Origin: a virus
Taxonomy: Duplodnaviria; Caudoviricetes
Strand: one strand, 5' to 3'
Virus record (IMG/VR): IMGVR_UViG_3300048834_001011
Span: 1 to 56,829 of that record
DNA: 56,829 nt
Part shown: piece by piece, positions 32,639 to 52,802 of the stretch
Layout of the letters: every line of letters starts with the position of its first letter
How positions within the stretch are numbered: the first letter of the stretch is position 1
Translations under genes and position numbers: made by a program
The notes under the pieces: model-generated
Database searches by the model: none
What the model was told of the DNA's origin: nothing
The model's input: only the letters and a program-made list of their open reading frames with translations

Positions 32639-32832
32639 GAACGCGCTCCGTTGTTGTTCTTGATTTCCTCGGAGTGCTGAATCGCAATGCCGTGCCGCTC
32701 GCAGTAGCCCCGAATCAGAACTTCGACCATGTTCGCGATGGATCGATGCTCCTGATCCGCCGCGATGCGAAGCGCTTCCTTGAGTCCGGGGTCGATACGA
32801 AATGTGAGCGTGGCAGTCTTGACTGTGGCCAT
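32635..32832 (-). CDS. Ribbon-helix-helix regulator heading the defence operon
   Basis: TATLTFRIDPGLKEALRIAADQEHRSIANMVEVLIR; GGAGAGG RBS; ATGA overlap with DUF499. Confidence 0.8.
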   Translation of the reverse strand: MATVKTATLTFRIDPGLKEALRIAADQEHRSIANMVEVLIRGYCERHGIAIQHSEEIKNNNGARS

Positions 32833-32848
32833 AGCCTCTCCAGGAACC

Positions 32849-32874
32849 ACTGTAAATGTACTGCACTTTACAGT
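32849..32874. promoter_or_regulatory. Palindromic operator upstream of the RHH gene
   Basis: ACTGTAAA-N10-TTTACAGT perfect 8-bp inverted repeat, 16 bp before the ATG. Confidence 0.55.
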
Positions 32875-33244
32875 ATCGCGGCAGTTCCCACAATGCGGAA
32901 CTGCTCTCGTGCTTGTCCCCGCGCCACGCGATGACGACGCCAGACCCGCGTGGCGCGCTGGGCAGTTGGTGGCGGTTGTCGTGGGTAACGGGCATCGAGG
33001 CGTCGGATCGGCAGCAGATGTCCGTATGAACGCGCTATTCCGACGAAGAGCCAAGCCACTCGTGGATGCCGAGTGTGGGCGACCAGACCTTCAAGTGATG
33101 GCGGGATGCGCTTTGCCTGGAAAACGAGCGCCCGATCGGCGCGTCGGAACGCCTGCGAACTGGCAGGCACTCGCCGAATCGAAATGGCCAAATTCTCTAA
33201 GCCATGTCCAAAGGGCCGGGCGCGTTACTATTTACGTCGGAGCG

Positions 33245-33277
33245 CGGACGCGGGTTCGATTCCGGGTTCCACCACCA
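33245..33277 (+). other. att-like junction: tmRNA/tRNA 3'-end-like fragment
   Basis: CGGACGCGGGTTCGATTCC...TCCACCA (T-loop plus CCA) with no 5' half of an RNA gene. Confidence 0.7.
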
Positions 33278-33520
33278 CCTACAAGGGCTCGGATAGTCTC
33301 CGGGCCCTTTCTCTTGCCTGAAATCCCCGCGCCACGCGGGGTTCCGGCCGATGGGCTTGCGGATGCCATCCTGCCGCTAGGCTCCAAAACCGGCGTTTTT
33401 CGGGCGTTTTTCCCGCCCAGAGTCGTCTCTGTCTCTGTTTTGCTTGCGGGTAGTCGCAGCCACAAGCCTTCAAAATCAACCACTTACGCGCCCTGGTTCG
33501 CTGTCAACCGCGCCCGCCAG
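33268..33520 (+). repeat. Conserved non-coding element end (copy 1); copy 2 at ~53559-53801
   Basis: Shared blocks CTTGCCTGAAATCCCCGC..GCGGGGTTCCGGCC, CCAGAG.CGTCTCTG, TGCGGGTAG.CGCAG, CAAAATCAAC.ACTTACGCG. Confidence 0.85.
33283..33312 (+). terminator. Intrinsic terminator after the junction (copy 1)
   Basis: AAGGGCTCGGA-TAGTC-TCCGGGCCCTTT; same hairpin at 53574. Confidence 0.7.
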
Positions 33521-33976
33521 TCAAGTATCGAACCGCGCCACGACCGCACGTTGCGCCGTCCAGTCCACCGGCAACGGGTTCCGCTGGAACCACAGCAGGC
33601 TCATACAGCGGGGCTGCTGCCCGGCATAGATCGCCTTCACGATGTCCGGCTCCAGCAGCGTCAGGCGCAGCAGTTCGTTGACCGTGGAATGGTGCAAGCC
33701 TTCGCGCTTGGCGATCTCACTGCCGGTTTCGACCACGCCGTCGTCGAGCAATTGCTGCCAGTAGAACGCCCGTGACAGCGCCGTCAGCAAGGGCTGGTCG
33801 TGCACGGCGGCCGTCTTGGCCTGCACCTGCGCCACAGCAGGCCGCACCACCACGGCCCGCCCGCCGCGCTTTCTGATCTTGATCGGGATGAAGGTCGTGA
33901 GCCGGATTTCGTCGCCGTCGCGCCGCTCGCGCTTTTCCGCCAACCCGGTGGCCTCGATCTTGGGTTTGTTCTTCAC
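33521..33976 (-). CDS. Recombinase-associated HTH protein (often labelled LacI-like)
   Basis: RAFYWQQLLDDG...SEIAKREGLHHSTVNELLRLTLLEPDI; overlaps the recombinase stop; paralog at 54284. Confidence 0.8.
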   Translation of the reverse strand: MKNKPKIEATGLAEKRERRDGDEIRLTTFIPIKIRKRGGRAVVVRPAVAQVQAKTAAVHDQPLLTALSRAFYWQQLLDDGVVETGSEIAKREGLHHSTVNELLRLTLLEPDIVKAIYAGQQPRCMSLLWFQRNPLPVDWTAQRAVVARFDT

Positions 33977-35307
33977 ACCGCCTCCGCTTCCAGTTCCTGC
34001 AGTTCCGCGCCGATGGTGCCGGGCAGCAAATCCATGGCCAGTTCCTGCCAGCCGAGGTCACGCCAGATGATTTCCAGCCCGGCATCACCCAGCACCACCC
34101 GCTCGATCAGCAACTGCGCCAGCCGCCGCTGCTCGGCGGGATAGAGCGTGGGCCACATCGCCGCGAGGTTGCGCATCGGCAGCACCACCTGGGGCTCGTC
34201 CATGTCAGGCCGGATGACGTGCATCCGATCCACGACCATCTGCACGATGTGCGGGGCCTGCAGCGCCATCACGATCTGCTCGACAACCAGCGATTCGATC
34301 GGTTCGGCGGGCAACGACCCGTGCCGACTGGCCCACGCACCCATGCGCCGATGCAACACCGGCGTGTAGTAGCAGTACCGTTTGCCCTTCTTGTTGGTGT
34401 AGGTCGGCATCAGCTTCTCGCCGTCGTCGGTGAACAGCAGCCCCGACAGCAAGGGTTCGACCTCGCCGCGCGCCACGCGCTTGCGTTGCCGTGCTTCCGT
34501 TTCGATCAGCGCGTGAACGGCATCCCACTGCGCCTGCGTGATGAGGGCCTGATGCTCGCCGGGGTAGCTCTGGCCCCGGTGATTGATCTCGCCCAGGTAC
34601 ATCCGGTTGTGCAGCAGCTTGTACATCGTCTGCTTGGTCAGCGGCTTGCCCACCTTGCTCAACAGCCCTTCGGTGGCGTAGGTTTTGGCCATCGTCGTGG
34701 TGGAGCCGACGTTCACGAAATCGTCGAAGATGCGCCGCACCAGCGCCGCTTCCTTCTCGTTGACGACGAGCTTGCGCTCGACCACGTCGTAGCCCAGCGG
34801 TAGCGGTCCGCCCATCCACATTCCTTTCTTCTTCGACGCCGCGATCTTGTCGCGGATGCGCTCGCCGGTGACCTCGCGCTCGAACTGCGCAAAGGACAGC
34901 AGGACGTTGAGCATCAGACGCCCCATCGAGGTGGTGGTGTTGAACTGCTGCGTCACCGACACGAACGACACGCCGCGCCGGTCGAACACCTCGACCATCC
35001 GCGCAAAGTCGGATAACGAGCGCGAGAGCCGGTCGATCTTGTAGACCACCACGACGTCCACCTTGCCGTGCTCGATGTCGGCAAGCAGGCGGCGCAACGC
35101 AGGCCGCTCCATATTGCCGCCCGAGTAGCCGCCATCCTCGAAGTGGTCGCCGACCGGAATCCAACCTTCGGCACGCTGGCTGTGGATGTAGGCGCGGCCT
35201 GCCTCGCGCTGTGCATCGATGGAATTGAAGGACTGGTCAAGGCGTTCGTCGCTGGATACGCGGCAATAGACGGCGCAGCGTTTCGGGTGCACGAGCGGCA
35301 GGTTCAT
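33973..35307 (-). CDS. Large serine recombinase (integrase)
   Basis: AVYCRVSS catalytic Ser, DGGYSG, RPALRRLL, VYKIDRLSRS, FAQFERE, GPLPLGY; ATG 35307. Confidence 0.95.
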   Translation of the reverse strand: MNLPLVHPKRCAVYCRVSSDERLDQSFNSIDAQREAGRAYIHSQRAEGWIPVGDHFEDGGYSGGNMERPALRRLLADIEHGKVDVVVVYKIDRLSRSLSDFARMVEVFDRRGVSFVSVTQQFNTTTSMGRLMLNVLLSFAQFEREVTGERIRDKIAASKKKGMWMGGPLPLGYDVVERKLVVNEKEAALVRRIFDDFVNVGSTTTMAKTYATEGLLSKVGKPLTKQTMYKLLHNRMYLGEINHRGQSYPGEHQALITQAQWDAVHALIETEARQRKRVARGEVEPLLSGLLFTDDGEKLMPTYTNKKGKRYCYYTPVLHRRMGAWASRHGSLPAEPIESLVVEQIVMALQAPHIVQMVVDRMHVIRPDMDEPQVVLPMRNLAAMWPTLYPAEQRRLAQLLIERVVLGDAGLEIIWRDLGWQELAMDLLPGTIGAELQELEAEAV

Positions 35308-35786
35308 CGCACACCCGCCTTCTGGCCGCGCAGGCCGAAAAATCGCGGCCCGTTCCACTGCACGCCCGTGATATGCCGAGCCACCGCCGACAGGCTGCGA
35401 AACGTCTTGCCTGCGTACTCGCATTCACCATCCGGTGTGACGACGACGCGATGCTCGCGTTCGTCCCATTCGCGGATCAGCACCGTGCCGGGCATCAGGT
35501 GCTGCTGGCGGCTGTCACCCGCAACCGGGTCCAGCCGGTGCTTGATCTTGGAATGCGCGGCACCGGCTTCGACCAGATGGCGGCGAATGCCGGTCGGCAC
35601 CGCGCCGTAGGCCATCTCCTGAATCCGGTAGGCCAGCCGGGATTCGAGGAAGGGGCGATTGATGTGCTTGGGCCGCCGGGGGAAGTGTTGATCCCACAGC
35701 GCCCACAGTTCGGCCATCGGCAACGCGGGCAAAACCGCGATCTGCGCCGACACGGTGCCGACGCCCGTGTTGGGGTTTCTGGTCAT
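35304..35786 (-). CDS. DUF2924 family protein
   Basis: RLAYRIQE.AYG, PGTVLIREW, SLSAVARHITGVQWNGPRFFGL; upstream of the recombinase. Confidence 0.88.
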   Translation of the reverse strand: MTRNPNTGVGTVSAQIAVLPALPMAELWALWDQHFPRRPKHINRPFLESRLAYRIQEMAYGAVPTGIRRHLVEAGAAHSKIKHRLDPVAGDSRQQHLMPGTVLIREWDEREHRVVVTPDGECEYAGKTFRSLSAVARHITGVQWNGPRFFGLRGQKAGVR

Positions 35787-35847: not shown

Positions 35848-36258
35848 TCAAACCGTGCTCTGTGGCTGTGTAGCCAAGGGCGGTGGCGCGAATCCGACGG
35901 CGGACTCCGTATCGGTGCGGTAGCTGATGGCCTTGCCCGTGACCGGGTGGCACAGCGTGCCGAACGTCACTTCACTGCCGATGCGCTGCGCGACGACGCA
36001 GGTGTCGTCGAGATGCGCCGGAAAAACCCAGCCCCGCACGCCATCGGGCAGATGGGCAAATTCCTCGATGCTTTGCAGTAAGTGGGGTTTGCCGAGCGCG
36101 TCGGCTTCGGCCTGCGCCTGCACGATGGCGTCGGGCTCGTCGCCGACCTCGACGATGGGAATCCACAGCACGTCGTGACCCGCAGCGAACCACAGCAGGA
36201 CTTCGACCTGCATCGACGAGGCGTGCGGGCCGAGGGGATGAATGATGTGATGGCTCAC
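35848..36258 (-). CDS. Hypothetical protein
   Basis: GTG 36258 after GAAGG; globular-looking 136 aa. Confidence 0.55.
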   Translation of the reverse strand: MSHHIIHPLGPHASSMQVEVLLWFAAGHDVLWIPIVEVGDEPDAIVQAQAEADALGKPHLLQSIEEFAHLPDGVRGWVFPAHLDDTCVVAQRIGSEVTFGTLCHPVTGKAISYRTDTESAVGFAPPPLATQPQSTV

Positions 36259-36429
36259 GGGATGACCTTCAGTTCCAGGATGGGATCGGGTTGAACGGAT
36301 ACCGGTTTGCGCGATGCCTTTCGCGCTTGGCACCGGTGGGCCTCACGCGGCATGGGCGGAGTCGGACTGGCGGACACGACCAAGTTCCAGTCCGAGGCGG
36401 ACGGCGGATATGCCACGACTGCCCATGAA

Positions 36430-37275
36430 TCACGCACCTGGCATTTCCGACGCCAGCTTCGCGCGGGCGGCTTCGATGTACTCGTGCGGAATATCGATCT
36501 CGTACTTGCTTTCGCGGTGACTGCGGTAGCCACAGGCGTGATCCGCGACGGAGGCGCGGGCCAGCGCGTCATAGAGGTGGTGCAACTGCTCGTAGAGCTC
36601 GATCTTGGCAACCGTGGCTTGGGCGTGCTCGAACGAGCGTTCGGCATCTCGAAGCTGATTTGGGATGGCGGCGATATCGATATCGAGTGCCTGCACCTTG
36701 CCGGTGACGTTCTCCAGCGTGGCGCGCGCCACACGCAGTTCGACATCGAGTTTCGTCAGTGCGTCGGGCAAGACGAACTCGCCCTCGGCAGCCGCCATCG
36801 TTTCGCTGGCGGACAGGGTCTCAGCGGCGATGCGCTGCTCCAGTTCGCCGATACGTTTCTGCAGCTTGGCGATGAGGCTGGAATGCTGCTCGCGATTGGT
36901 CTGAAGGGAGTTGCGACGACGACGTAGTTCGATGATGACTGTGCGTGCGCTATCCAGCTTGACCGGCGCTTCGATGATGTGGCGCAGTTCGTTGAGCTTG
37001 GTTTTGAGCGGGCTGAGCTTGCGCTCCAGGTCACCAGCGCGGTTCTGGGCTGCACTGGAAGCCAGCCGCGCACGGCGCTCCTGCTCCGAGACGGAATGCT
37101 GGTTGCCGCGTTGCTCCAGTTCGAGGGCGTGTTTCGCCTTGGCTTCGGCATCGGCCTTCGCTTCGTCGGCTGCGGCCTGCGTTTCTTCGAGTCGCTGCTT
37201 GACCTCGGCGAACTCGGTCTTGATGCGCTCGTAGTAGCCGGTGGTGGTCTTCTTGCTGAAGGGATTGAATTTCAT
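36430..37275 (-). CDS. Long coiled-coil protein (candidate Sid/Psu-like satellite protein)
   Basis: 281 aa almost entirely heptad-helical; GGAG RBS. Confidence 0.75.
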   Translation of the reverse strand: MKFNPFSKKTTTGYYERIKTEFAEVKQRLEETQAAADEAKADAEAKAKHALELEQRGNQHSVSEQERRARLASSAAQNRAGDLERKLSPLKTKLNELRHIIEAPVKLDSARTVIIELRRRRNSLQTNREQHSSLIAKLQKRIGELEQRIAAETLSASETMAAAEGEFVLPDALTKLDVELRVARATLENVTGKVQALDIDIAAIPNQLRDAERSFEHAQATVAKIELYEQLHHLYDALARASVADHACGYRSHRESKYEIDIPHEYIEAARAKLASEMPGA

Positions 37276-37614: not shown

Positions 37615-38002
37615 TGTGTTCTCCGTTGTGGGTTGAGGATGTGCAACGTGCACAAGAGAAATGGTGGCGAAACAGAGACGTTCTGACGATCTGGGCGTAG
37701 CGGGTTTGGGCGTGTTTTGGCGTGCGAGCGCTCCCTACAGCGCCCGTCAGCGCACTCGGACCTGCTGCGGATAGACGGTTTTGCGGCGATGCTTGAGGCC
37801 ATCTGTTGCGGATGTGCATCCGAAGCCATGAGCCACATAGAGCAATGCATGGGCGGTTTGTCCTTGGTTTCAACGATTCGGCCATTTCGGGTGTTTGCCG
37901 CCACGACAGGAACCACGAAAAATCTGTTGCAACGCTCGCCGCGCAGCCCCCACCGATGGAATGTGAGGGACGCCAAGGGCACAACGACCAGAAAGGAAGT
38001 CC

Positions 38003-38230
38003 ATGAACACCATCGAACATCCGGGCCTGCTCACACCACGCCAATTGGCGGCCCGCTGGGGCATGAGCGAAAAGACCCTCGAGCGCTGGCGCACGCTGGG
38101 CACGGGCCCGATGTACCTGAAGCTCGGCAGCCGCGTGATGTATCCGCTGACCTCCATCGCGGAACACGAGCAGGGCCGGATGCGCCGCTGCACGGCAGGC
38201 CAAGAACTGTCCCAGTTCCAACACTGCTGA
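38003..38230 (+). CDS. AlpA/excisionase-like HTH protein
   Basis: LLTPRQLAARWGMSEKTLERWRTLGTGP.YLKLGSRVMY; AAAGGA RBS. Confidence 0.88.
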   Translation: MNTIEHPGLLTPRQLAARWGMSEKTLERWRTLGTGPMYLKLGSRVMYPLTSIAEHEQGRMRRCTAGQELSQFQHC

Positions 38231-40368
38231 TGTCCTCGATGCAGACGGCCTCGGCGATCAGCACGACAGCGGTCGCGTATCCGTGGTTCGACTTCAACGA
38301 TGCGGTCGCCGTCGAGCCGCGCCTGGGGAAGGAGGACATCCGTGCCCGGCTGATCGAGCAACTGGAATCGGCGCTGGCCTACCTGCTGCCGCGCGGCAAG
38401 CGACGTGGCGCGCAATTTGTCGTCGGCAATGTGCAGGGTGATGCGGGCGACAGCCTTGTTGTCGATCTCGATGGCGCAAAGCGCGGCCTGTGGCTGGACT
38501 TCGCCACCGGCGAATCCGGTGATGCGCTCGCTCTGTGGGCCACCGTGTGCGGCTTCATCCTTCCCCAGCAGTTTGATGCGCTGCTGGAGGACATCGGTCA
38601 CTGGCTGGTGGTGCCGCGTGTCGTGGTGCCGATCACGGTGCCGTCGAGCGCGCCGCACGATGAGCTTGGCCCCGCCACCGCCAAGTGGGACTACCACGAT
38701 GCCAGCGGCGCGCTGCTGGCCTGCGTTTACCGCTATGACCCGCCTGGAGGCAAGCAGTACCGCCCGTGGGATGTGAAAACACGCTCGATGCGGATGCCGG
38801 AGCCGCGTCCGCTCTACAACCTACCTGCCATCGCCGCCAGCAACGATGTCGTACTGGTCGAGGGTGAAAAATGCGCCGATGCCTTGATGCACCTCGGCAT
38901 CACGGCCACCACCGCAATGGGCGGTGCGGCTACCGCCATCGCGAAGACCGACTGGATGCCACTGGCCGGGAAGACGGTCGTCATCTGGCCTGACCACGAC
39001 GAGGCCGGATCGCGCTACGCCGATGCCGTGATTACGAGGTTGCGGCAGATCGGTGCGAAGGTACGGCGCGTGACCGTGCCTCAGGACAAGCCCAAGAAGT
39101 GGGATGCCGCCGACGCGGTGGCCGAAGGCCTGGATGTGTCGGCGCTGCTGCGCTCGTCCGCGCCGGTCGCCGATGACCTCCAGCCTCTGGAGACCATCCA
39201 GATCTCGCAGTGGCGTGCGTTGGATCGCTTCACCGGCCACCCCCAAGCCCGGCGCTGGCTGGTCGAAGGCGTGTTTCCGCAGGCGCAGGCCGCGCTGGTG
39301 GCCGCAGCAGGCGGTGTCGGTAAATCCTTCCTGCTGCTGGCCTTGGCGCGCGAGGTCGCTGCCTTCGATGGCACCAAAGACCATGCACCGATGGTGTTCG
39401 GCAGTGCATTGGCAGGCCATGGCGTGGCGATTTACATCACCGCCGAGGACGATGCCATCGAGGTGCACAACCGCCTGAACGCCCTGGGCCCGATTCCTGA
39501 CCGGCTCTACGTGCTGCCGCTGCCCGATGCCGGTGGCGCGCAGCCGCTGTTTGCACCCGACCCGGCCACACGCGGCCCGGCCACGACGGCAGCCTGGCTC
39601 GAACTGGAACGGCAACTCCGAGCGATGGCCGGGCTGCGGCTGGTGGTGCTCGATCCCCTGCAACCGCTGTGCGCGCTCGATCTCAACGTGCCCGAGAACG
39701 CGCAGTTCGTCTGCTCACGCCTGGCTGCGCTGGCGGCCCGCACCGGCGCATCGGTGATCGTGTCGCACCACTTCGCCAAACGTGAGGCGACCACACCGGA
39801 GCAGGCGCGCGAGGCGATTCGCGGCACGGGCGGACTGGTGGACGGCGTGCGGTCGGTGTACGCGTTGTGGCAGCCCAAGGAGGAACAGGCCCGCAGGCTG
39901 TGCAAGACCTTGGGCGAGCCCTTCGAGCGCGGGCGCGTGGTGCTGGGTGGCGTGGTCAAGGCCAACGGGCAGGCCGACCTGCACGTCACGACCTTCCTGC
40001 GCGATGCGCGCGGGCTGCTGGTGGATCGCAACCAGGACCTTCGGCGCACGGCGCAGCCGGACATCGAACTGCTCCCTGCATTGAAGGCCGCCATCGCCCG
40101 TGCGGCTGCCGCAGGTCAGCCCTACACCAAGACCGGCGGCAACGGCATCTACGAGCGCCGCCACGAACTGCCGGAAGACTTCCAGCGCATCGGCAAGCAT
40201 CGGCTGACCGAATGGGTCAGCGCACTGCTTGACCGCGAGGAACTGGTGATGGCGATGGCAGAAGGCTCCAAGCTGGTGAAGTGGCTGGACGTGCCCAATG
40301 GGCCCGTCGCCAACGGCGCGGCGCAGTTCGTGACCGGGCACCTGGGGCGCTCGTCCGCTGGCCGATGA
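38230..40368 (+). CDS. TOPRIM primase - AAA_25/RepA-type helicase fusion
   Basis: WLDFATGESGD, LVEGEKCADA, IWPDHDEAG, KWDAAD; AAGGVGKS Walker A, VVLDPLQ, VSHH; TGATG overlap with the HTH gene. Confidence 0.9.
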   Translation: MSSMQTASAISTTAVAYPWFDFNDAVAVEPRLGKEDIRARLIEQLESALAYLLPRGKRRGAQFVVGNVQGDAGDSLVVDLDGAKRGLWLDFATGESGDALALWATVCGFILPQQFDALLEDIGHWLVVPRVVVPITVPSSAPHDELGPATAKWDYHDASGALLACVYRYDPPGGKQYRPWDVKTRSMRMPEPRPLYNLPAIAASNDVVLVEGEKCADALMHLGITATTAMGGAATAIAKTDWMPLAGKTVVIWPDHDEAGSRYADAVITRLRQIGAKVRRVTVPQDKPKKWDAADAVAEGLDVSALLRSSAPVADDLQPLETIQISQWRALDRFTGHPQARRWLVEGVFPQAQAALVAAAGGVGKSFLLLALAREVAAFDGTKDHAPMVFGSALAGHGVAIYITAEDDAIEVHNRLNALGPIPDRLYVLPLPDAGGAQPLFAPDPATRGPATTAAWLELERQLRAMAGLRLVVLDPLQPLCALDLNVPENAQFVCSRLAALAARTGASVIVSHHFAKREATTPEQAREAIRGTGGLVDGVRSVYALWQPKEEQARRLCKTLGEPFERGRVVLGGVVKANGQADLHVTTFLRDARGLLVDRNQDLRRTAQPDIELLPALKAAIARAAAAGQPYTKTGGNGIYERRHELPEDFQRIGKHRLTEWVSALLDREELVMAMAEGSKLVKWLDVPNGPVANGAAQFVTGHLGRSSAGR

Positions 40369-40425
40369 TGAGCATCGAGGGAGGTGAGCATTCCCGATGC
40401 TCACCCTCTCTTTAGAGAGTATTCA

Positions 40426-40610
40426 CCGGGAACTGGGAATGATTTGTAGATCGTTGATCTGCAAAGGAAATCGCTGAAACAATCGTTCCCACTTCACCCC
40501 TGGGAACGATTCGACCCGGAAACGATTTTTGTCCGCGCCCGCACTGGATTTAATCGTTCCCACTCGGTCAATCGTTCCCAGCCGGGAACTGGGAAGCCGG
40601 GAACGATTGG
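40426..40610. repeat. Iteron-like repeats, putative replication origin
   Basis: AATCGTTCCC/GGGAACGATT at ~40481, 40502, 40552, 40570, 40598 in both orientations; CCGGGAACTGGGAA twice; directly after the primase. Confidence 0.65.
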
Positions 40611-40708
40611 CACGGCATGGCGGATCATTGACCGTGAGGGTGGTGACGATGGTGACGGTCACCGCCTATTGTTATGGTCGGCGCACGCAACCACGCCCCA
40701 GGCGAAAG

Positions 40709-40808
40709 GGGTCCTTCCTGGCGATATTCCAATACGGGGGGCGCGAGCGCTGCATCTCGCCACCGACAGGCCACGAAACCAGGTTACCGCCCGAGGTTAC
40801 CGGTTACC
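40709..40808 (+). other. cos-like packaging site 1 (cosQ-cosN-repeats)
   Basis: GGGTCCT (identical to lambda cosQ), N16, ATACGG-GGGGCGCGAGCG-CTGCAT, then GGTTACC x3. Confidence 0.65.
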
Positions 40809-40821
40809 ACCCGCCGACGAT

Positions 40822-40936
40822 GCAAACCGTGGCCATCGGTGCAAACCGCAAACCCCTGCAAACCTTGTTTTGGGTTCGCACGGTAGCGAAGCGTGGCGCT
40901 CACGCCTCCCGTATGGATCACGCTGAAGAAGGACCC
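40822..40936 (-). other. cos-like packaging site 2, inverted
   Basis: Minus strand: GGGTCCT, N15, ATACGG-GAGGCGTGAGCG-CCACGC, then GGTTTGC x4. Confidence 0.65.
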
Positions 40937-41285
40937 ATTTTGCCTCGGGGATGGCCGTCACGCGACCGGCAAAACGGTGATCGGCGCAAACGCAGCAACG
41001 GCGCAGGCCTCCGGCCATTTCAATGCCCGATGGCGTCCAATCGGTGAGCGTGGGGGAGTGCTGGCGCAGGGGGAGGCGCTTTGGTGCCGGTCGCGCGCCG
41101 GAAAACGGCCGACGAGAGAAACCCAACACTGGCGCGGGTTTGGCGCGGCTTCGCCGCCTGAAACAGGCAAATCGGCTGACGTGTCGGAGGCGCGATCCCA
41201 AGGGTGTGAGCCGCGCTCACAACCCTGCGCCAGCGCCGAAGGGTATCCAGATACTGGACACCCCGGTGGCGCAATCAGCAGATGG

Positions 41286-41651
41286 TCAGGCCGCTTCCTG
41301 TTCCTCGACGAGGCCGCAGTGAATCACGAAGCCTGTCAGGTAAGGCAGGCCGCGCGGGATGCCGTACTGCTTGCTGGTCTGGCGTCCAATCGTCCAGCCC
41401 ATCCACTTCTGCGTGGCGGCGATGATGGCCTGCGGCAGCGCGCGGCCGTCGTAGATAGCGTTGTGGACGTCGTCCGCGAAGTGGCGTCCGTGGCGGCTGT
41501 CGAGGAAGGCCCGGATGTTGTCGAAGTCTTCGCCCGTGGCGTCGGCGATGGCGGTCATGGCCAGCGGCCAGGCAGTGGCGGCGTGTTCGTTCATCGCGCC
41601 CCAGAAGCCCCGCGTTTCGTTGTGGGTGGCCGGGATGGTGATGTTGCTCAT
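41286..41651 (-). CDS. Phage-type hypothetical protein
   Basis: GFWG...IRAFLDSRHGRHFADDV...YGIPRGLPYLTGFV; GGAG RBS; next to DUF3489. Confidence 0.75.
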   Translation of the reverse strand: MSNITIPATHNETRGFWGAMNEHAATAWPLAMTAIADATGEDFDNIRAFLDSRHGRHFADDVHNAIYDGRALPQAIIAATQKWMGWTIGRQTSKQYGIPRGLPYLTGFVIHCGLVEEQEAA

Positions 41652-41738
41652 GGTGTTCTCCGTGATGGCGATGATTGAAGTAACGCGCTGACGGAGACGG
41701 AAGCCAAGCCATTTCTGGCTCCCGGCTCCATATTCACT

Positions 41739-42293
41739 TCACGCCACGCGGTAGATGCGCTTGCCGCCGGGCTGCTTGTCGGACACCAGCGTCAGGCCCA
41801 GTTTCTTCTTGAACGCCCCGGCGAATGCGCCGCGTACCGTGTGCGCCTGCCAGCCAGTGGCATCGCAAATCTGGCGGACGGTCGCGCCTTCAGGCCGTTG
41901 CAGCATCCGCACCACCTCGGCCTGCTTGCTGTGCGCCCGCGTGCGCGGTTTGGCGCACGTCGCTTCGGCCGCGGCAACGGCGTCTTCCAGTTCCGCATCG
42001 TTCGGCGCGCCTTCGGCATTGGCGATGATCTGGCCGAGCTTGGCCTCGAACTGACCAATGCGCTTCTTGCCGATGCCGGGGCTCGGGACGCCAAGCGCGT
42101 CATAGCCTGCGGCATTGACCCTCCACAGCGTGCCAAGCTGCCCGATGAGTCCGCGGTTGGCAAGGCCTGCCAGCACCTTCTGGCGCGCGCCGCCGTGGAT
42201 GTTGGACGGGAACCATTCGACGCGTCCATCGGCGTGGTCGAGGGCGTGGGCGAGGATGGCGCGCTGGGTCGGGGTCAATGGGGCTGCTGTCAT
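41739..42293 (-). CDS. DUF3489 family protein
   Basis: SKQAEVVRMLQRPEGATVRQICDATGWQAHTVRGAFAGAFKKKLGL; AAGGAG RBS. Confidence 0.88.
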   Translation of the reverse strand: MTAAPLTPTQRAILAHALDHADGRVEWFPSNIHGGARQKVLAGLANRGLIGQLGTLWRVNAAGYDALGVPSPGIGKKRIGQFEAKLGQIIANAEGAPNDAELEDAVAAAEATCAKPRTRAHSKQAEVVRMLQRPEGATVRQICDATGWQAHTVRGAFAGAFKKKLGLTLVSDKQPGGKRIYRVA

Positions 42294-42454
42294 CGAGTGC
42301 TCCTTCAAGGATGGTGATGTGGGGCTCGATGAACGCGCTGTTTGGCCCGAAAGCCAAGCGTTTCATGGCTGGCGCAGAGATTCCCTGTTAGATTGGAGTC
42401 TTTGCGATTGAATGCGACTTTGTGCCATCCAATTGCCTACAACTGGAGCATGCC

Positions 42455-42699: not shown

Positions 42700-45600
42700 A
42701 TGCTGACTCAAGACAATCTCTCGGACTTGCTGGTTGCCCTCGGTTTCGAAAGGAAAGGCGCGATTCATCGCAAGGAATTCGGCGCAGCCGTGCTGGAGGT
42801 GAACGTCACCAAGAAGGAGATCACCTACCCCGAAGCAGCGGGATTGGTCATCAATGAGCGCCAAACCTGCAACTTCGAAGCCAACGAAAATTTCGTCGTG
42901 CTGGAATGCGTGTGCCGTCTCCTGGAAAAGGGATACAAGCCAGAGCACATCGAGCTGGAACCCAAGTGGAAGTTGGGGCGCGGTGCCAGCGGCGGGCGTG
43001 CCGACATCCTGATCAAGGACAACGATGGCCGCCCATTGCTGATCATCGAATGCAAAACGGCGGGCGGCGAGTTCAAGCGCGCATGGAACAAGACCCTGCA
43101 AGACGGCGACCAACTATTCAGCTACGCACAGCAAATCAGCGAAACCCAGTTCCTGTGCCTGTACACCTCGGACTTGGATGCAGGCACGGTCAGCTACACC
43201 AGCCACATCATCGCGCACCGCGACAACGAGAGGTATCTGGCTGACAACCCGCTGTTCAAGAGCTTCAAGTCAGTCACTGACGTCAAAGAACGCCATGCTG
43301 TCTGGCGGGACACCTACAAGCTCGACTACACCACCAAGGGCATTTTTGAAGAAAACATTCAGCCCTATCACATCGGCAAAGACAAATATTCGCTGGCCGA
43401 CCTGCACGCCATTTCGGCCAGCGATCAGCAGAAGAAATACCACGAGTTCGCCACCATCCTGCGCCAGCACAATGTGTCGGGCCGTGAAAACGCCTTCGAC
43501 AAGCTGGTTAATCTGTTTCTGTGCAAGCTGGTGGATGAAATTGAAAATCCATCCGACCTGAAGGTTTACTGGAAGGGTGTGGCCTACGACACCCATTTCG
43601 ATCTGATGGATCGCCTGCAGCAGTTGTATCAGGCAGGCATGGGCAAGTTTCTCGGGGAAGACATCACCTACATCAACCAGGGTGACGTCAACAACGCGCT
43701 ACGCTTCATCAAGCAGAACCCGGATGCCACGCAGCGTGCGGTGTGGAATCTGTTCATTCAGCAGAAGTTTTTTACCAACAACGATTTCTCGCTGATCGAT
43801 GTTCACAACGAAAAGCTGTTTTATCAAAACGCCGAGGTGCTGCTGAAAATCCTGCAGATGTGGCAAGACATTCGGCTGACCGATCCCCACGGCCACAACC
43901 AGTTTCTCGGCGATATGTTCGAGGGCTTTCTTGACCAAGGTGTCAAGCAGAGCGAAGGGCAGTTCTTCACGCCCATGCCCATCTGCCGCTTCATCATGAT
44001 GAGCCTGCCGCTGGCCACGCTCGTCCAGCGCAGCGCCACTCCGCCCAAGGCCATCGACTACGCCTGCGGCGCAGGCCACTTTCTCACCGAGCTGGCCTTG
44101 CAGCTCAAGCCATTGGTGGAAACGCACCAGCCAGCAGCAGACCTTGCGGCGTATCACAAGGCCTTGTATGGCATCGAGAAAGAGTACCGCCTTTCCAAGG
44201 TCGCCAAGGTGTCGGCCTTCATGTATGGACAGCAGGGGATCAACATCTGCTACGGCGACGGCCTGATCAACCAGCACGAGGCATTTCCGGACATCAAGGA
44301 CGGAAGTTTTGACCTGCTGGTCGCCAACCCGCCTTATAGCGTGCGCGGCTTTCTGGAGACGCTGCCCGAGGAAGAACGCAAGGCTTACACCCTCACCGAG
44401 ACCATCAACGATCTCGAAACCTCCAACAGCATCGAAACCTTTTTCATCGAACGCGCCAAGCAGCTGCTGCGCGCCGACGGCGTTGCCGCGATCATCCTGC
44501 CGTCCAGCATCCTGTCCAACGGCGGCAGCGCCTACATTCGCACCCGTGAAATCCTGATCCAGTATTTCGACATCGTCGCCATTGCTGAATTCGGCAGCGG
44601 CACCTTCGGCAAAACGGGCACCAACACCGTCACCCTGTTCCTGCGGCGCAAGAAGACCGCGCCGGACACCGCTGCGCATTACCGCGAGCGCGTAGAGGAA
44701 TGGTTCAAGGGCTGCGATGCCAGCAAGCGCAAGCAGGTCATCTACAAGGATGAGCATTTGATCGCCCGCTACGCGGCGCACATCAATGTGCCGCTGGACG
44801 ATTACAAGACCCTGCTCAAGGCCGATCCGGATGGGGCCTGGACCGCCCATCTGGAGGCCGTCTACCTCGAGAAATTCAACACCAGCACCGAGATCACCAA
44901 TCTCTACAAGGCCAAATGGTTCAAGGCCTTGAAGCCTGAAGATCAAGATGCCGAAGTCAACAAGCGCTATCTAGCCTTTGTGCAAGCCATTGAGCGTGAC
45001 AAGCTTTACCACTTCGTCATGGCCTGCGACCAGCCCAACCCGGTGCTGATCATTCGCAGCCCTACCGAAACCAAGGCCATCAAGCAGTTCCTCGGCTACG
45101 ACTGGAGTTCCGCCAAGGGCGATGAGGGCATCAAGCTCATCAAGGATGCCCACGGGCGGCACCTCACGCCGTTGTATGACGAAACCAATCGAGATAACAC
45201 CGGGAAGCTCAATTTCAGCATTGCGGCGAATTTCAATGGCACGCTGGCGGCAGTCCCAGCGGCATTGCAAGACGTGGCACGCAAAGCCCCGCTGGTGGAT
45301 ATGTTGGACTTTTCGCGTGCCATCTTTGAAAAGCAGCTCAACTTGGCGATCAAAGGTGGCGTAAAGGTCGTATCCAAGTGGCCTATCGCACCACTGAATA
45401 GCTTGGCCGACATACGAAAAGGAACTTCAATCACCCAGAAGAAAGCTGTGCCGGGGGCCTATAAAGTTGTCGCGGGAGGGATGACTCATGCCTACACGCA
45501 CAATGTATTCAATCGGGCAGCCAACACTATCACCGTCAGCGCCTCAGGTGCCAGTGCTGGCTATGTGGCCTTCTGGCGGGAGCCAATTTTTGCATCCGAC

Positions 45601-46461
45601 TGTACGACGGTGCGTGGAGCTGATGATGAGCATACGGAATACCTCTACCATTTTCTGAAAAGTCGGCAGAGTGAAATTCAGGCGACTTCAAGTGGTGCAG
45701 CGCAGCCTCATGTTTATCCAAAGGATCTTGAGGCCCTACAGATTCCACAGCCTGACCCGACCACACTGAAGAACATTGTTTCTGAGTGCAGATCGATCGA
45801 GGATCAAGTCAACTCTTCGCGCGACACGTTTCAGAATGCCTTGGCCCGCATTGACGCGAAAGTCGCCAACATTTATGGGTCTTCAGCTGCACATTCAGAA
45901 ATCGACAAACTCGCCATCGACATTCAGTACGGCCTGAACGAAGCCATGAATGAGGGTGGTGTTGGCTACAAGATCTTCCGTATGAACGAGATCATCCGAG
46001 GCCAAATGGTGGACAACGGCAGCATGAAGTGCGCTGATATCAGTGCCGAGGAGTTTGCCAAGTACAAGCTCAACAAGGGCGACTTACTTTTCAATCGCAC
46101 CAATAGCATCGAGCACGTCGGCAAGACCGGACTGTTCGATCTGGATGGCGAGTACTGTTTTGCGTCCTACCTCGTGCGCGTGGTGCCCGACACAGGGCAG
46201 GTATTGCCGAAATTCCTTGAAAAGATGATGAATTCAGCGGCCTTCCAAACAGAAGCGAAAGGCAAGGCCTCCAAGTCCATCAATCAGGCCAATATCAACG
46301 CGACGATCATGCGCAATATCAAGGTGCCCGTGCCGTCCCTGCCCGAACAGAAAAAGTTTGTCGCCGGCGTCGAAGCCCTGGAGAAACAGATTGCCGAAGC
46401 CCAGGCGGTGATCGATGGCGCAGCCGCCCGTAAGCAGGCCATCCTGCAGAAGTATCTGTAA
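42700..46461 (+). CDS. Single-chain restriction-modification enzyme (nuclease + N6-MTase + two HsdS-type TRDs; Type IIG/IIB-like)
   Basis: RADILIK...IIECK PD-(D/E)xK; GQFFTP, DYACGAGHFL, ANPPY; two TRD repeats ending SGAAQPHV and SINQANIN. Confidence 0.9.
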   Translation: MLTQDNLSDLLVALGFERKGAIHRKEFGAAVLEVNVTKKEITYPEAAGLVINERQTCNFEANENFVVLECVCRLLEKGYKPEHIELEPKWKLGRGASGGRADILIKDNDGRPLLIIECKTAGGEFKRAWNKTLQDGDQLFSYAQQISETQFLCLYTSDLDAGTVSYTSHIIAHRDNERYLADNPLFKSFKSVTDVKERHAVWRDTYKLDYTTKGIFEENIQPYHIGKDKYSLADLHAISASDQQKKYHEFATILRQHNVSGRENAFDKLVNLFLCKLVDEIENPSDLKVYWKGVAYDTHFDLMDRLQQLYQAGMGKFLGEDITYINQGDVNNALRFIKQNPDATQRAVWNLFIQQKFFTNNDFSLIDVHNEKLFYQNAEVLLKILQMWQDIRLTDPHGHNQFLGDMFEGFLDQGVKQSEGQFFTPMPICRFIMMSLPLATLVQRSATPPKAIDYACGAGHFLTELALQLKPLVETHQPAADLAAYHKALYGIEKEYRLSKVAKVSAFMYGQQGINICYGDGLINQHEAFPDIKDGSFDLLVANPPYSVRGFLETLPEEERKAYTLTETINDLETSNSIETFFIERAKQLLRADGVAAIILPSSILSNGGSAYIRTREILIQYFDIVAIAEFGSGTFGKTGTNTVTLFLRRKKTAPDTAAHYRERVEEWFKGCDASKRKQVIYKDEHLIARYAAHINVPLDDYKTLLKADPDGAWTAHLEAVYLEKFNTSTEITNLYKAKWFKALKPEDQDAEVNKRYLAFVQAIERDKLYHFVMACDQPNPVLIIRSPTETKAIKQFLGYDWSSAKGDEGIKLIKDAHGRHLTPLYDETNRDNTGKLNFSIAANFNGTLAAVPAALQDVARKAPLVDMLDFSRAIFEKQLNLAIKGGVKVVSKWPIAPLNSLADIRKGTSITQKKAVPGAYKVVAGGMTHAYTHNVFNRAANTITVSASGASAGYVAFWREPIFASDCTTVRGADDEHTEYLYHFLKSRQSEIQATSSGAAQPHVYPKDLEALQIPQPDPTTLKNIVSECRSIEDQVNSSRDTFQNALARIDAKVANIYGSSAAHSEIDKLAIDIQYGLNEAMNEGGVGYKIFRMNEIIRGQMVDNGSMKCADISAEEFAKYKLNKGDLLFNRTNSIEHVGKTGLFDLDGEYCFASYLVRVVPDTGQVLPKFLEKMMNSAAFQTEAKGKASKSINQANINATIMRNIKVPVPSLPEQKKFVAGVEALEKQIAEAQAVIDGAAARKQAILQKYL

Positions 46462-46473
46462 GGAGCGGTGACG

Positions 46474-48981
46474 ATGAGCGACTTCCAAAAGCAATACGCC
46501 CTGTGGGATGAGTTCCTGAGCGTCTGGCCCGCATCACGGCTGGCTACGATGACTCTGGACGACTACAGCCAGGCGGGGTCGAAGGACAGCTTTACCTACT
46601 GGATCGAATCGCGCCTGGATGAGCTGGGCAGCATTTGGGGAGGCTCGTCGTTCAAGTTCGGCGTGTTCTCGCGCAAAAATCTCGAAGCCCGCGAGAGTGC
46701 GGAAAACCGCAGCTACTCCGATACCCACGGCTGGTACTCCTCACTGGGTGCCACGGCCGAAGAAGCCTTTGAAAAGGTGCGTGGCTACATTGGGCAGGTC
46801 GCTGCGTTGGCCGCAAACGGCGATCTGGACGGCATTGAGGCTTTCGATCACTTGGGCGAAGCCACCAAGTGGAAGATAGCCTTCCACTACCAAAACCGGC
46901 AAGCGCCGGTGATCGTGGACATCTTCAAAAAGGCACCGCTGGCTGTCTTTGTCGGCAGCACGGCCAGCCAGTCGATGGCCGCTTTGCAGAAGGCCGCGTT
47001 GGCCAAGCGGCCCGAGGGGCTGGGTATTCTGGAATTCGGGCGGCAGGTGTGGGAGGCGTGGAGCCAGAAGAATCTGGCGGTCTGGAAGCTCTCGCACGGC
47101 AACCCGCCTAACTTCACCGACACCGAGCGCCAGCAGTATCTGGATGGGCAATGGGCGGTGATGCACCGTGACACCGGGAAGGAGCAAGGCAAGAAATTTG
47201 CCGAGGTACCGGTGGGCGCCTTGTTCTTCCTGTGCCACGGCAACAGCCCGCAGCGCATCGGCCAATTCACGTCGGCGGCCATGCCCTGCGCCAAGGGCGA
47301 TGGCTGGCTGCAGCGCAGCTACCGCGTGCTCAAGCCCGCGCAGCGCACCGACCGCTACACCGCCAACTCTAAAAATTGGTCACCACAAGGCAATTCGACC
47401 TTCTGGCAGGTGGGCGCGCACGATCTGCCGGAATTCGAATCCACCTTGCTCAAGCCGTTTTTTGGCACCGATCTGGCCGAATTGGCAGCGCTGGCCGGTG
47501 AGCCGATTGAGGCGGCCAGCTTGGGCGATGGCGTGGCACCGCCTCCGGTCGCCACACCGGGCACTGGCAACCCGCGCAACGCTACCTGCTTCAACCGCAT
47601 TTACTACGGCCCGCCCGGCACCGGCAAAACCTACACGCTGATGCAACTGCTCAAGCGTGATTACGAGCCGCAGGCCGCGTCCATCTCCACCGAAGAATGG
47701 CGCACGCAGGTCATTGCCGAGAAGGTGGCCGTGCTGAAGTGGTGGGAAGGGGCCGCTGCCGCACTGTATGACCTGGGCGGCAAGGCCAAGGTGGCGGACA
47801 TTGCGGAGCACCGGTTCATTCAGGCCATGACCGCCGCCAACGGCTCGAACCGCAGTGTGCGGCAAACGCTGTGGCGCACCCTGCAGACCCACACGGTCGA
47901 GGAGTCCACCACGGTCAAGCTGAAAAAGCGCCTGAGCCCACCCGTGTTCGACAAGACGGCAGATTCGGTGTGGCAGTTCGCCGGTGATTGGCAGGATGCC
48001 TGCGCAGATTTAATCAGCTTGGTCGATCAGCTCAACGCAGGCCAACAGGACACCGCCACGGTGCAGCGCTACAGCTTTGTGACCTTCCATCAGTCCTATG
48101 GCTACGAGGAATTCGTCGAGGGCTTGCGCCCCGTGCTGAACGGCGACGCCGAAGCGGGCGAAGTGGAATACGAAATTCGCCCCGGCGCGTTCAAGGAGTT
48201 GTGCCGCAAGGCACGGCAGGCGCCCGATCAGCGCTTTGCGATGGTCATCGACGAAATCAACCGGGGCAACATCAGCAAGATTTTTGGTGAGCTGATCACC
48301 TTGATCGAACCGGATAAGCGCGATCCCCTCGATGGCGGCAAGCCGCCCATCGAACTGACGCTGGCCTATTCGGGCGAGAAGTTTTCGGTGCCTGCCAATG
48401 TGGACATCATCGGCACGATGAACACGGCGGATCGTTCACTGGCCTTGCTGGATACGGCGCTGCGCCGCCGCTTCGATTTCGTGCCGCTGTTGCCCGACAC
48501 GCGCGCCGTGAAAGTGCCCGATGAGCCGCACAGCGCACCGCTGGCGGGCTTGGTGGTGAGCACGGACGCAGGCGAGATCGATGTGCGCCGGTTGCTGGAA
48601 CGCATCAACGAACGTATCGAGGCGCTGTACGACCGCGACCATTGCATCGGTCACGCCTACTTCACCCACCTGTGGAGTACGACGGATGGCGCGCAGCGGT
48701 TCGAAGCCCTGGCTGATACCTTCCGCAATCGCGTGTTGCCCCTACTGGAGGAATACTTCTTCGAGGACTGGCGCAAGATTCGACTGGTACTGGGCGACAA
48801 CCAGAAGCCCGATGCCGCCCAGTTCATCACCGAGAGCGATGCCCACGAGCAGGCATTGAATGACCTGTTTGGCGACGACCACGGGCTCGACAGCTACACC
48901 ACCCAGCGCCGCCATCAACTCCAGGCATCGGCATTCGCCAACCCAGCCAGCTACCTCGGCATCTACCAGTCCCTGGCTTGA
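46474..48981 (+). CDS. mcrB: McrB-family GTPase with extended N-terminal domains
   Basis: YGPPGTGKT, FVTFHQSYGYEEFVEG, DEINRGN, GTMNTADRS, LRRRF. Confidence 0.92.
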   Translation: MSDFQKQYALWDEFLSVWPASRLATMTLDDYSQAGSKDSFTYWIESRLDELGSIWGGSSFKFGVFSRKNLEARESAENRSYSDTHGWYSSLGATAEEAFEKVRGYIGQVAALAANGDLDGIEAFDHLGEATKWKIAFHYQNRQAPVIVDIFKKAPLAVFVGSTASQSMAALQKAALAKRPEGLGILEFGRQVWEAWSQKNLAVWKLSHGNPPNFTDTERQQYLDGQWAVMHRDTGKEQGKKFAEVPVGALFFLCHGNSPQRIGQFTSAAMPCAKGDGWLQRSYRVLKPAQRTDRYTANSKNWSPQGNSTFWQVGAHDLPEFESTLLKPFFGTDLAELAALAGEPIEAASLGDGVAPPPVATPGTGNPRNATCFNRIYYGPPGTGKTYTLMQLLKRDYEPQAASISTEEWRTQVIAEKVAVLKWWEGAAAALYDLGGKAKVADIAEHRFIQAMTAANGSNRSVRQTLWRTLQTHTVEESTTVKLKKRLSPPVFDKTADSVWQFAGDWQDACADLISLVDQLNAGQQDTATVQRYSFVTFHQSYGYEEFVEGLRPVLNGDAEAGEVEYEIRPGAFKELCRKARQAPDQRFAMVIDEINRGNISKIFGELITLIEPDKRDPLDGGKPPIELTLAYSGEKFSVPANVDIIGTMNTADRSLALLDTALRRRFDFVPLLPDTRAVKVPDEPHSAPLAGLVVSTDAGEIDVRRLLERINERIEALYDRDHCIGHAYFTHLWSTTDGAQRFEALADTFRNRVLPLLEEYFFEDWRKIRLVLGDNQKPDAAQFITESDAHEQALNDLFGDDHGLDSYTTQRRHQLQASAFANPASYLGIYQSLA

Positions 48982-48990
48982 GGGGGACGA

Positions 48991-50367
48991 ATGGCGCACA
49001 CCCCGATCTACGAATTCGATGCACTGGTGGCTGCCGCCACCGGTGTCACCGATGGCGTGGGGCTGCGCACGGTGCCGCCGCAGGTGTTTGCCTGGCTGGA
49101 AGCGCAGGCGCTGCGCCTGGCCGAGGTGGGTGAAACACCCTGGTTGCGCTTGACTCAGCGGCGTGGGCGACGCGCCGTACAGGTGACCCGTTTCGTCGGA
49201 GTGATACGGACCCCGGATGGCTATCAGATCGAGGTGCTGCCGAAAGTCGGCAAAGCCATTGGTGGGGGCGATGTTGAGGCGCGGCAGTTGCTGATCGAAA
49301 TGCTGCGCTGCCTGGGGGGCTTTCGCCACATCCAGACTGACAGCGCCAAGCTGTTTGCCACCCGCATGCCCTTGCTGGAAGTGTTCATCGCTGAATTCCT
49401 TCGCGCCGTGGAGCATCTCGTCAAACGCGGGCTGCGCAGCGATTACAGGGCGCAGCAAGACAACTTGTTTGCCCTGCGCGGCAAGCTGCAAATGGCGGCA
49501 CACCTGCGGCACAACCTGTGTCGGCGCGACCGTTTCTTTGCCGAGTTCGACGAGTTCTCGCCCAACCGACCGGAGAACCGTTTGCTGCACGCAGCATTGC
49601 GGCGTGTGCTCGCCTGGACGGCCTCGCAGGCCAACCAGCAACTGGCACGCGAGCTGTGCTTCGTGTTTGCCGACGTACCGGCATCGGAACACCCTGCCAC
49701 GGACTTCCAGCGAGTGCGCCTGGATCGGGGCATGGCGCATTACGAGGGGGCGTTGGCGTGGGCACGGCTGATCCTGGAGGATGAATCGCCGCTCACCGGC
49801 GCGGGCGGTCATCATGCGCCGTCCCTGCTGTTTCCGATGGAGGCAGTGTTCGAGGCCTTCGTCGCCAAGCACCTTGCACGGCAACTTGAGCAAGGCTTCG
49901 CGCTGCGCACGCAGGCCCGCAGCCTGTCCTTGGTCAGGCACCTCGAACAGAACTGGTTCCGTCTGAAACCCGATCTGCTGGTGCAGGCGTCGAAGGTCAA
50001 TCGGCTGGTTCTGGACACCAAGTGGAAGCTGATCGATGGCCAGCAGGCCACGGGTTCAGACAAATACGGCCTGGATCAGGGCGACTTCTACCAACTCCAC
50101 GCCTATGGCCAGAACTACCTCGACGGCCAAGGGGACGTGGTGTTGATCTACCCGAAGACGGATGCCTTGAACAAGGCGCTGCCAGTGTTCGAGTTTCCGA
50201 AATCGTCAGGACTGCGGTTGTGGGTGCTGCCGTTCTGCCTGAAGCGGCGTGAGCTCATCCTGCCTGCTTGCGGCAGTCTCGATGGGTGCTTCTCGCGTGG
50301 GCATTCTGCACCGTCAAGCACGGACGCTGCTAGCGATGCCGCTGCTCAAGAAGCGGTCTTGGCATGA
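48991..50367 (+). CDS. mcrC: McrC-family nuclease subunit
   Basis: FVGVI...IEVLPK, PNRPENRL, FPMEAVFE, LKPDL...LDTKWK, DFYQLHAY. Confidence 0.92.
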   Translation: MAHTPIYEFDALVAAATGVTDGVGLRTVPPQVFAWLEAQALRLAEVGETPWLRLTQRRGRRAVQVTRFVGVIRTPDGYQIEVLPKVGKAIGGGDVEARQLLIEMLRCLGGFRHIQTDSAKLFATRMPLLEVFIAEFLRAVEHLVKRGLRSDYRAQQDNLFALRGKLQMAAHLRHNLCRRDRFFAEFDEFSPNRPENRLLHAALRRVLAWTASQANQQLARELCFVFADVPASEHPATDFQRVRLDRGMAHYEGALAWARLILEDESPLTGAGGHHAPSLLFPMEAVFEAFVAKHLARQLEQGFALRTQARSLSLVRHLEQNWFRLKPDLLVQASKVNRLVLDTKWKLIDGQQATGSDKYGLDQGDFYQLHAYGQNYLDGQGDVVLIYPKTDALNKALPVFEFPKSSGLRLWVLPFCLKRRELILPACGSLDGCFSRGHSAPSSTDAASDAAAQEAVLA

Positions 50368-52795: not shown

Positions 52796-52802
52796 AGAGC
52801 CG

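Follow-up and report, generated by a model that had tools for sequence, protein, structure and literature searches.

Two head-to-head lambda-type cos sites of different cosB class in a putative phage satellite with predicted dual helper specificity

Introduction

The cos site of phage lambda comprises cosQ, cosN and cosB, with the R3, R2 and R1 sites bound by gpNu1. Why a stretch of only 228 bp should hold two such sites, facing each other, is the question raised by positions 40709-40936 of the DNA analyzed here, a linear IMG/VR record taken in its entirety (56,829 nucleotides, CheckV completeness 68%; hereafter, the window). A preliminary description of this DNA had read the stretch as two inverted sites, each containing GGGTCCT and followed by its own repeats, and had proposed that they form a compact bidirectional packaging cassette allowing the element to use two helper terminase specificities. 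It had also remarked on the presence of two cos sites in some E. coli PICIs, which is borne out by EcCICFT073 (Fillol-Salom et al. 2018, 2019), an E. coli cos-type PICI reported to harbor cos1 and cos2, both mediating transfer (PMC6739421, PMC6092414; review PMC9026076). Satellites that copy the cos of their helpers, and one island with two cos sites, are hence already known, and the reason why two sites are kept was posed as an open question by the authors of the EcCICFT073 work (PMC6739421).

Results

Two inverted sites occupy one intergenic region

The pair lies beside a field of iterons in a 918-bp intergenic region between convergent primase and phrog_8020 genes, and all the motifs and coordinates given for it in the preliminary description are present in the sequence, confirming the original observation. 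The first site (40709-40808, plus strand) opens with the cosQ heptamer GGGTCCT (40709-40715), followed after 16 nt by ATACGG and the 12-mer GGGGCGCGAGCG (40738-40749), with a predicted cosN at approximately 40735-40750, and then by a cosB with three copies of GGTTACC starting at 40782, 40795 and 40802 (40782-40808); packaging from this site would proceed rightwards. The second site (40822-40936, minus strand) is inverted, with GGGTCCT at 40936-40930, a 15-nt spacer, ATACGG and the 12-mer GAGGCGTGAGCG (40908-40897), a predicted cosN at approximately 40911-40896 and a cosB with four copies of GGTTTGC at 40864, 40854, 40847 and 40828 (40864-40822), from which packaging would proceed leftwards. 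The 12-mers of the two arms are identical at 10 of 12 positions, and the cosB repeats (three GGTTACC, four GGTTTGC) lie 32-115 nt past them, on the packaged side of cosN. Aligned with each other, the arms present a mean column identity of 79% over 143 columns, and they constitute an imperfect 95-nt inverted repeat able to pair together.

The two GGGTCCT copies are the only ones in the 56,829-base window, as against a shuffle mean of 5.7, and both fall on opposite strands within the 228-bp stretch; the composite GGGTCCT-N13-19-ATACGG has two matches in the window and none in 100 shuffles, which upholds the claim of two inverted sites. Three of the four plus-strand GGTTACC copies in the whole window are located between the two 12-mers, as are four of the ten copies of GCAAACC. 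A cos profile built from 122 sites at other loci matches the window only at 40696-40778 (plus strand, E = 1e-20) and 40949-40868 (minus strand, E = 2e-13). The distance from cosQ to the 12-mer is 22 nt in the plus arm and 21 nt in the minus arm, close to the ~20 nt expected of a cosQ; in lambda (J02459), an identical GGGTCCT is placed 23 nt before the right end and its 12-nt cohesive end. The predicted nicks within 40735-40750 (plus) and 40911-40896 (minus) are uncertain by 1-3 nt. With two mismatches in 12 positions to the GGGGCGCGAGCG sequence that is nearly invariant in phages, the minus arm may be the weaker site. A BLASTN search of positions 40380-41300 against 50,697 phage records returned no match, the element being too short and too diverged for BLAST.

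The same type of site precedes the terminase genes of related prophages

Because the terminase genes of the neighboring prophage lie beyond the window, together with its own cos, a circumstance that counts against reading the element as a satellite, the site was sought in relatives, namely 80 prophages collected through the S49 protease of the window (57-89% identity). With the nhmmer profile of 122 sites, 48 of these 80 prophages proved to have one cos site each. The site invariably shares the strand of the head genes and precedes terS, the gpA terminase gene and the portal gene, and in most loci 8-10 kb separate it from the protease gene downstream. A strict regular expression (GGGTCC-N12-22-[AT]ACGG) returned a site in just one of the 80, a false negative outcome attributable to the phage sites reading ATGCGG. 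The 48 sites share cosQ and, mostly, the 12-mer GGGGCGCGAGCG, and their cosB repeats are GGTTACC, GGTTTGC or GGTTCGC, which answers affirmatively, for relatives, the check that the preliminary description had put forward for the neighboring prophage, that of whether a cos upstream of the terminase bears such repeats.

In a Ralstonia prophage (L432), cos is found upstream of two ParB-methylase genes, a DUF3489 gene, terS (5708-6244; phrog_57, terminase small subunit, E = 4e-36), gpA, with gpA domains present, a lambda-family portal gene and the S49 protease gene. Six true phages (L219, L220, L222, L226, L229 and L230) present the order primase, cos, phrog_8020 gene, DUF3489, terS, gpA and portal. 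Viral contigs scanned with the cosQ-ATACGGG pattern likewise yielded many clearly homologous sites, and two IMG/VR contigs terminate next to them, one exactly 12 nt (L181) and the other 10 nt (L153) past ATACGG.

A mapped end is available in the RcC cluster of Rhodobacter capsulatus phages, in which read termini are reported to show 11-base 5' overhangs (PMC8601537, Table 3 and RcC section), lambda-type cohesive ends being about 11-13 nt long. The cultured phage RcBaka, a member of that cluster, shares 57% identity in gpA and 44% in TerS with the cos-bearing family, and in the alignment its record starts no more than 1-3 nt away from the predicted nick. The layout is likewise the same (cos, ParB-like gene, small reverse genes, terS and terL), with the overhang at the homologous place and three direct repeats after it. 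The RcC-cluster phages differ from the island described below in that they are complete phages, virulent or temperate, have one cos each and use another repeat unit, GTTTCCACTT. Three direct copies of this unit lie past the mapped left end of RcBaka (L458), at positions 40-90, and its TerS helix reads HTAVGKAI; these repeats look like a fourth cosB type.

The comparison with lambda holds for the identical cosQ heptamer, the near-equal spacing to a G-rich 12-mer and the position of repeats downstream of cosN, as well as for the gpA-type large terminase and lambda-family portal of the phage family represented in the window. It does not extend to the repeats, which are 7-mers here and 16-mers in lambda, to TerS, for which BLASTP detects no similarity to gpNu1 (E = 14), or to the 4-6 kb of other genes that in this phage family separate cos from terS. 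By homology, we consider the predicted site to be a genuine lambda-type cos.

The cosB repeat class agrees with the TerS helix-turn-helix motif

From 67 of 70 loci, the ORF directly preceding gpA could be retrieved, and the N-terminal helix-turn-helix motif of TerS agrees with the cosB class in 46 of 47 loci. The motif is HVAVKKAI at all 18 GGTTACC loci, DTAVHKAI at all 21 GGTTTGC loci and, among the eight GGTTCGC loci, DAAVRKAI at seven, the eighth being a mis-picked ORF. Mapped on a 62-row gpA tree, TerS undergoes at least eight changes of type, and the cos class, assigned to 45 rows, at least six, with TerS and cos labels never in conflict. Independent pairs of TerS and cosB amount to two or three well supported ones per class, too few for the sign test to reach significance, and this result was counted against the association. 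Searches of TerS against solved structures gave no match at E values up to 1. Taken as predictions from this covariation, the heptamer repeats would be the TerS-binding elements of cosB.

The two classes present in the window, GGTTACC and GGTTTGC, are the commonest in the helper phage family, and both are found in the Comamonadaceae, the family of several of the islands described below. Among the closest relatives of the window prophage with a readable site or TerS, five (L370, L371, L374, L375 and L377) belong to the GGTTACC class and one (L376) to the GGTTCGC class.

The cos pair belongs to a discrete island at a tmRNA-gene fragment

The first 20,000 nucleotides of the window contain prophage head, tail and lysis genes (portal end, S49 protease, lambda-E-type capsid protein, tape measure protein and lysozyme), the capsid protein being 63-67% identical to those of Wolbachia WO and Ralstonia prophages. 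Next to these genes, at the prophage's right end (20461-32995), lies a defense block that may be part of the prophage or a further island. It comprises PDC-S14, a PLD-helicase with DUF499 and DUF3780 proteins, all matched by PADLOC over their full length, and the pair of DarT and a Macro-domain protein; the segment at 24090-27161 presents a G+C content of 0.50-0.56, against 0.63 overall, and contains no long ORF of high third-position GC.

An island is inserted directly past this prophage, which belongs to a group with heads of the gpA-terminase type. Its attL-like left boundary (33244-33330, plus strand) is a 3'-end fragment of a tmRNA gene, with the T-arm, CCA end and terminator hairpin, at which homology with three related loci (L203, L206 and L208) begins. 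In those loci, the left edge coincides with the 3' end of a complete tmRNA gene, of which the window holds the terminal fragment only. The fragment is repeated with 93.7% identity at 53559-53621, within an attR-like right boundary (53539-53621, plus strand) where an inverted copy of the T-arm half-site precedes a second CCA end and terminator. A second, truncated copy of the recombinase-side module follows (53560-54880). We read this arrangement as a tandem array at a tmRNA-gene fragment, composed of the prophage, a 20.3-kb island (approximately 33244-53560) and an island remnant, with crossover points placed to within about 20 bp; the half-sites suggest that the serine recombinase would cross over in the T-loop. 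An insertion sequence with an rve transposase (54912-55952) cuts the second island copy after 1.3 kb, and a tRNA-Ser(GGA) gene lies beyond it (56085-56174).

The recombinase side of the island, all on the minus strand, encodes a 151-aa protein (33521-33976; phrog_14161, a 'recombinase' accessory, with a weak ParB-HTH match), a large serine recombinase that is the presumed integrase (33973-35424; Pfam Resolvase, Recombinase and Zn_ribbon_recom), a DUF2924 protein that always adjoins the recombinase (35304-35786), and a 161-aa protein followed by a 281-aa coiled-coil protein (35848-37275), both kept in related islands. On the plus strand, a primase-helicase with Toprim and AAA_25 domains (37717-40368; phrog_239) is 85-99% identical in the islands at loci L203-L211. 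Directly 3' of its gene, approximately seven copies of an 11-mer, AATCGTTCCCA or TGGGAACGATT, are arrayed in both orientations (40430-40610), and this iteron field is probably the replication origin of the island. Past the cos pair, the minus strand encodes a 121-aa protein of phrog_8020 (41286-41651), which is found beside cos in phages and islands, and a DUF3489 protein (41739-42308; phrog_10315), which in phages lies between cos and terS. In phages, the genes of these two proteins occupy the opposite strand in the interval from cos to terS (approximately 5075-5650 in L432; 788-2077 in RcBaka), and islands have kept them beside cos (41286-42308 in the window); a role in packaging or late regulation is possible. 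The remainder, on the plus strand (42700-53488), is variable defense cargo that differs among relatives: a type IIG restriction-modification enzyme, a McrBC-like pair, a TOTE/PrimPol-helicase and a RelE/HTH pair.

The core conserved with relatives starts sharply at 33244 and ends at approximately 42360, beyond which the cargo diverges. The island keeps the phage order up to DUF3489, with cargo standing in the position of the terminase genes. The plus arm (GGTTACC) has a phage-like position and orientation relative to primase and DUF3489, and the minus arm (GGTTTGC) is an addition. No terS homolog was found in the window, and Pfam and PHROG searches, which covered those ORFs from 33.5 to 53.5 kb that are GC-rich at third positions, revealed no virion or terminase genes in the island, in which integration and replication genes of its own are present. 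The cos pair is hence part of the island and not of the prophage, and the element as a whole is a satellite-like island, discrete and inserted at a tmRNA-gene fragment, a finding absent from the preliminary description. A search of sequencing runs by sampled words gave none that contained half of them, the best reaching 0.29, and all the runs with matches consisted of assembled contigs, in which the ends of molecules do not show.

Paired sites of different class recur in related islands

Close relatives of the primase-helicase (85-99% amino acid identity) are encoded in Burkholderiales genome contigs, and the 9-kb core is maintained with intact reading frames at this level of identity in at least eight contigs from different genera, with the cargo exchanged. 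Nine related islands, gathered in part with a pattern that presupposes the 12-mer and therefore not an unbiased census, have two cos sites, in two architectures. Head-to-head pairs of GGTTACC and GGTTTGC sites occur at L203, L206, L211 and L326 (L309 duplicates the contig of L203, and L253 that of L211; the arms of L330 are identical to those of L206), and the head-to-head pair of L208 combines GGTTCGC and GGTTACC. In the second architecture (L281, L297, L323 and L347), two outward-facing sites are 4.3-4.8 kb apart, the GGTTTGC site being placed as in phages and the GGTTACC site being flanked by the coiled-coil gene and the recombinase operon; the genes between these outward-facing sites match no Pfam family. 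The two sites differ in class in 10 of 10 dual elements, the window included. Other islands, among them L204, L135, L298 and L272, harbor a single site.

Compared with phage sites of the same class, island arms conserve cosQ, the ATACGG flank, the 12-mer and the heptamers, and the spacers drift. The flank preceding the 12-mer (40732-40737 and 40914-40909 in the window) reads ATACGG in both arms of five islands found independently of the search pattern. It reads ATGCGG in the phage sites that reach it, with one exception (ATGCAGG), and also in the six phages found through the primase (L219-L230). Since phages of other clades read ATACGG, this difference between islands and phages may be an effect of lineage rather than of function.

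Applied to relatives of the primase, the regular expression GGGTCC-N12-22-TACGG gave no match in the viral contigs L003-L015 or in the distant genome loci L207, L212-L216 and L221, several of which have a site by the profile. The gene following GGTTACC sites in loci such as L272 and L297 was considered as a candidate terS and rejected; it encodes a 148-aa protein of no known family, followed by DUF2924 and the serine recombinase, which identifies these loci as other islands. Neither terS nor gpA was detected within 9 kb of cos in L203, L204, L206 or L208. A search for helper-type terS in five island-bearing genomes, four of which are metagenome bins that may be incomplete, produced one weak match (1/5), and this was counted against reading the islands as satellites; a strict-pattern search for further cos sites in the same five genomes returned only those of the islands themselves. 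One metagenome bin (L205, L373, L378 and L420) contains an island relative, with a primase 94% identical to that of the window, and three helper-type prophage contigs, one with a GGTTTGC-class cos, a co-occurrence that applies within the bin.

Discussion

The results presented above are best explained, with a probability of approximately 70%, if the 228-bp stretch comprises two functional-looking lambda-type cohesive-end sites, placed head-to-head, in a 20.3-kb phage-derived satellite with a predicted dual helper specificity. The cassette serving two helper terminase specificities that the preliminary description had proposed thereby gains in silico support, the two arms matching two classes that track the TerS motif.

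The same locus could instead belong to one large temperate phage in a permuted or incomplete assembly, with a normal cos between primase and terS, an extra copy of it as the second arm and morons as the defense genes. The record contains no terminase genes, its CheckV completeness is the 68% given above, positions 37.7-42.3 kb present the first part of the true-phage gene order, and the window begins with the portal end and the protease, all of which such an assembly would produce. We nonetheless consider it quite unlikely, as the tmRNA 3'-end repeat brackets 33244-53560 and is followed by the partial recombinase-side module, and as relatives with 85-96% identical primases start at an intact tmRNA gene and have neither terS nor gpA in the 9 kb that follow cos, whereas terS lies 4-6 kb past cos in real phages. 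Nor does the evidence favor a decaying prophage remnant that has lost its morphogenesis genes and in which one or both cos sites are relics no longer serving transfer. An island gene order that mirrors that of phages, the two mismatches in the minus-arm 12-mer, the weak match to a helper terS in one of five island-bearing genomes, and the truncated second copy and insertion sequence next to the island are all compatible with decay. Against it, the 9-kb core remains intact at 85-99% amino acid identity in at least eight contigs of different genera despite the exchange of cargo, cosQ, the 12-mer and the heptamers are kept in both arms while the spacers diverge, and dual sites of different class arose in at least two architectures, rendering a remnant unlikely.

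The stretch might also be a palindrome with another role, such as a bidirectional terminator, an operator, a recombination site or part of the origin, and its likeness to cos incidental, as its position beside the iterons in a 918-bp convergent intergenic region and the capacity of the arms to pair might suggest. This we regard as very improbable: taken alone, each arm shows homology across ~85 nt to the single and non-palindromic sites that precede the terminase genes of 48 of 80 prophages, and each aligns to the mapped RcBaka end. The palindrome itself is not conserved, given that related islands bear a single arm (L204 and L135) or arms 4.3 kb apart.

Read as a satellite with two cos sites, the island resembles known elements in part. 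SaPIbov5 can use pac helpers as well as cos helpers, whereas the dual specificity of the island would come from two cos sites, not from cos and pac. Mobilization of the SaPIbov5 satellite by cos helpers is cited in PMC6092414, and P4-like satellites are described as combining a cos site, a primase-helicase and a defense hotspot (PMC9122126); the recombinase and primase families of both differ from those of the island. The alpha primase with D5_N, psu, sid, delta and tyrosine integrase that define P4-like satellites are not those seen here, where the primase has Toprim and AAA_25 without D5_N, and no gene for capsid-size redirection (sid, psu or cpm) was recognized in the island. Similarly, the island departs from the tyrosine integrase, AlpA-type activator and Rpp of Gram-negative PICIs: the integrase is a large serine recombinase, the scanned island ORFs gave no Pfam or PHROG match to AlpA, and a terS query revealed no terS or Rpp-like homolog in the island. 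Judged by its gene content, the island would work like a cos-type satellite even though it fits neither the PICI nor the P4-like definition.

EcCICFT073 is the closest in design in that, as the cited reports present it, it is a chromosomal satellite without a terminase, packaged via a cosQ-cosN that copies that of lambda-like helpers, a likeness that on the side of the island is one of sequence. These reports describe EcCICFT073 as having no recognizable cosB R repeats and as depending on Rpp, a TerS-binding protein that redirects specificity (PMC6739421, PMC6092414). In contrast, both arms in the window carry heptamer arrays of helper type, and the island has a serine recombinase rather than a tyrosine integrase and resides at a tmRNA gene in the Burkholderiales.

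Under the satellite interpretation, the island would excise and then replicate, by means of its own primase-helicase and origin, into concatemers. A helper TerS would bind the heptamer repeats of the matching cosB, and the gpA large terminase would nick the adjacent cosN and package the island into helper capsids. As the arms carry the two commonest specificity classes, either class of helper could mobilize the island. At 20.3 kb, roughly half or a third of a helper genome, the island would probably be packaged as multimers. We speculate that the inverted placement of the sites leaves each cosQ-cosN wrongly oriented to stop packaging begun at the other.

A literature search for satellites associated with DUF2924, DUF3489, serine recombinases or tmRNA genes in the Burkholderiales returned no description of this island family. 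A broader proposal, to which we give about even odds, is that the islands constitute an undescribed Burkholderiales satellite family with a serine recombinase and a tmRNA-gene target, that paired cos sites of different class evolved in it at least twice (head-to-head within ~230 bp, and outward-facing 4.3 kb apart), and that helper choice follows a simple code, in which three or four residues in the recognition helix of TerS would read two bases of the 7-mer GGTT-AC/TG/CG-C.

These findings would add to the known satellites a family with exchangeable anti-phage defense cargo in the Burkholderiales, an order for which the literature searched describes none, and they point to what may be a compact code for the recognition of DNA by TerS. 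In this island family, the reason for two cos sites becomes readable from the sequence, each site bearing the repeats of a different helper class and tracking the reading head of the helpers' TerS, and the question of why two sites are kept becomes directly testable. If the proposed family and its code hold true, they would account, directly and in general, for the presence of two different cos sites in satellites, the question raised in the literature.
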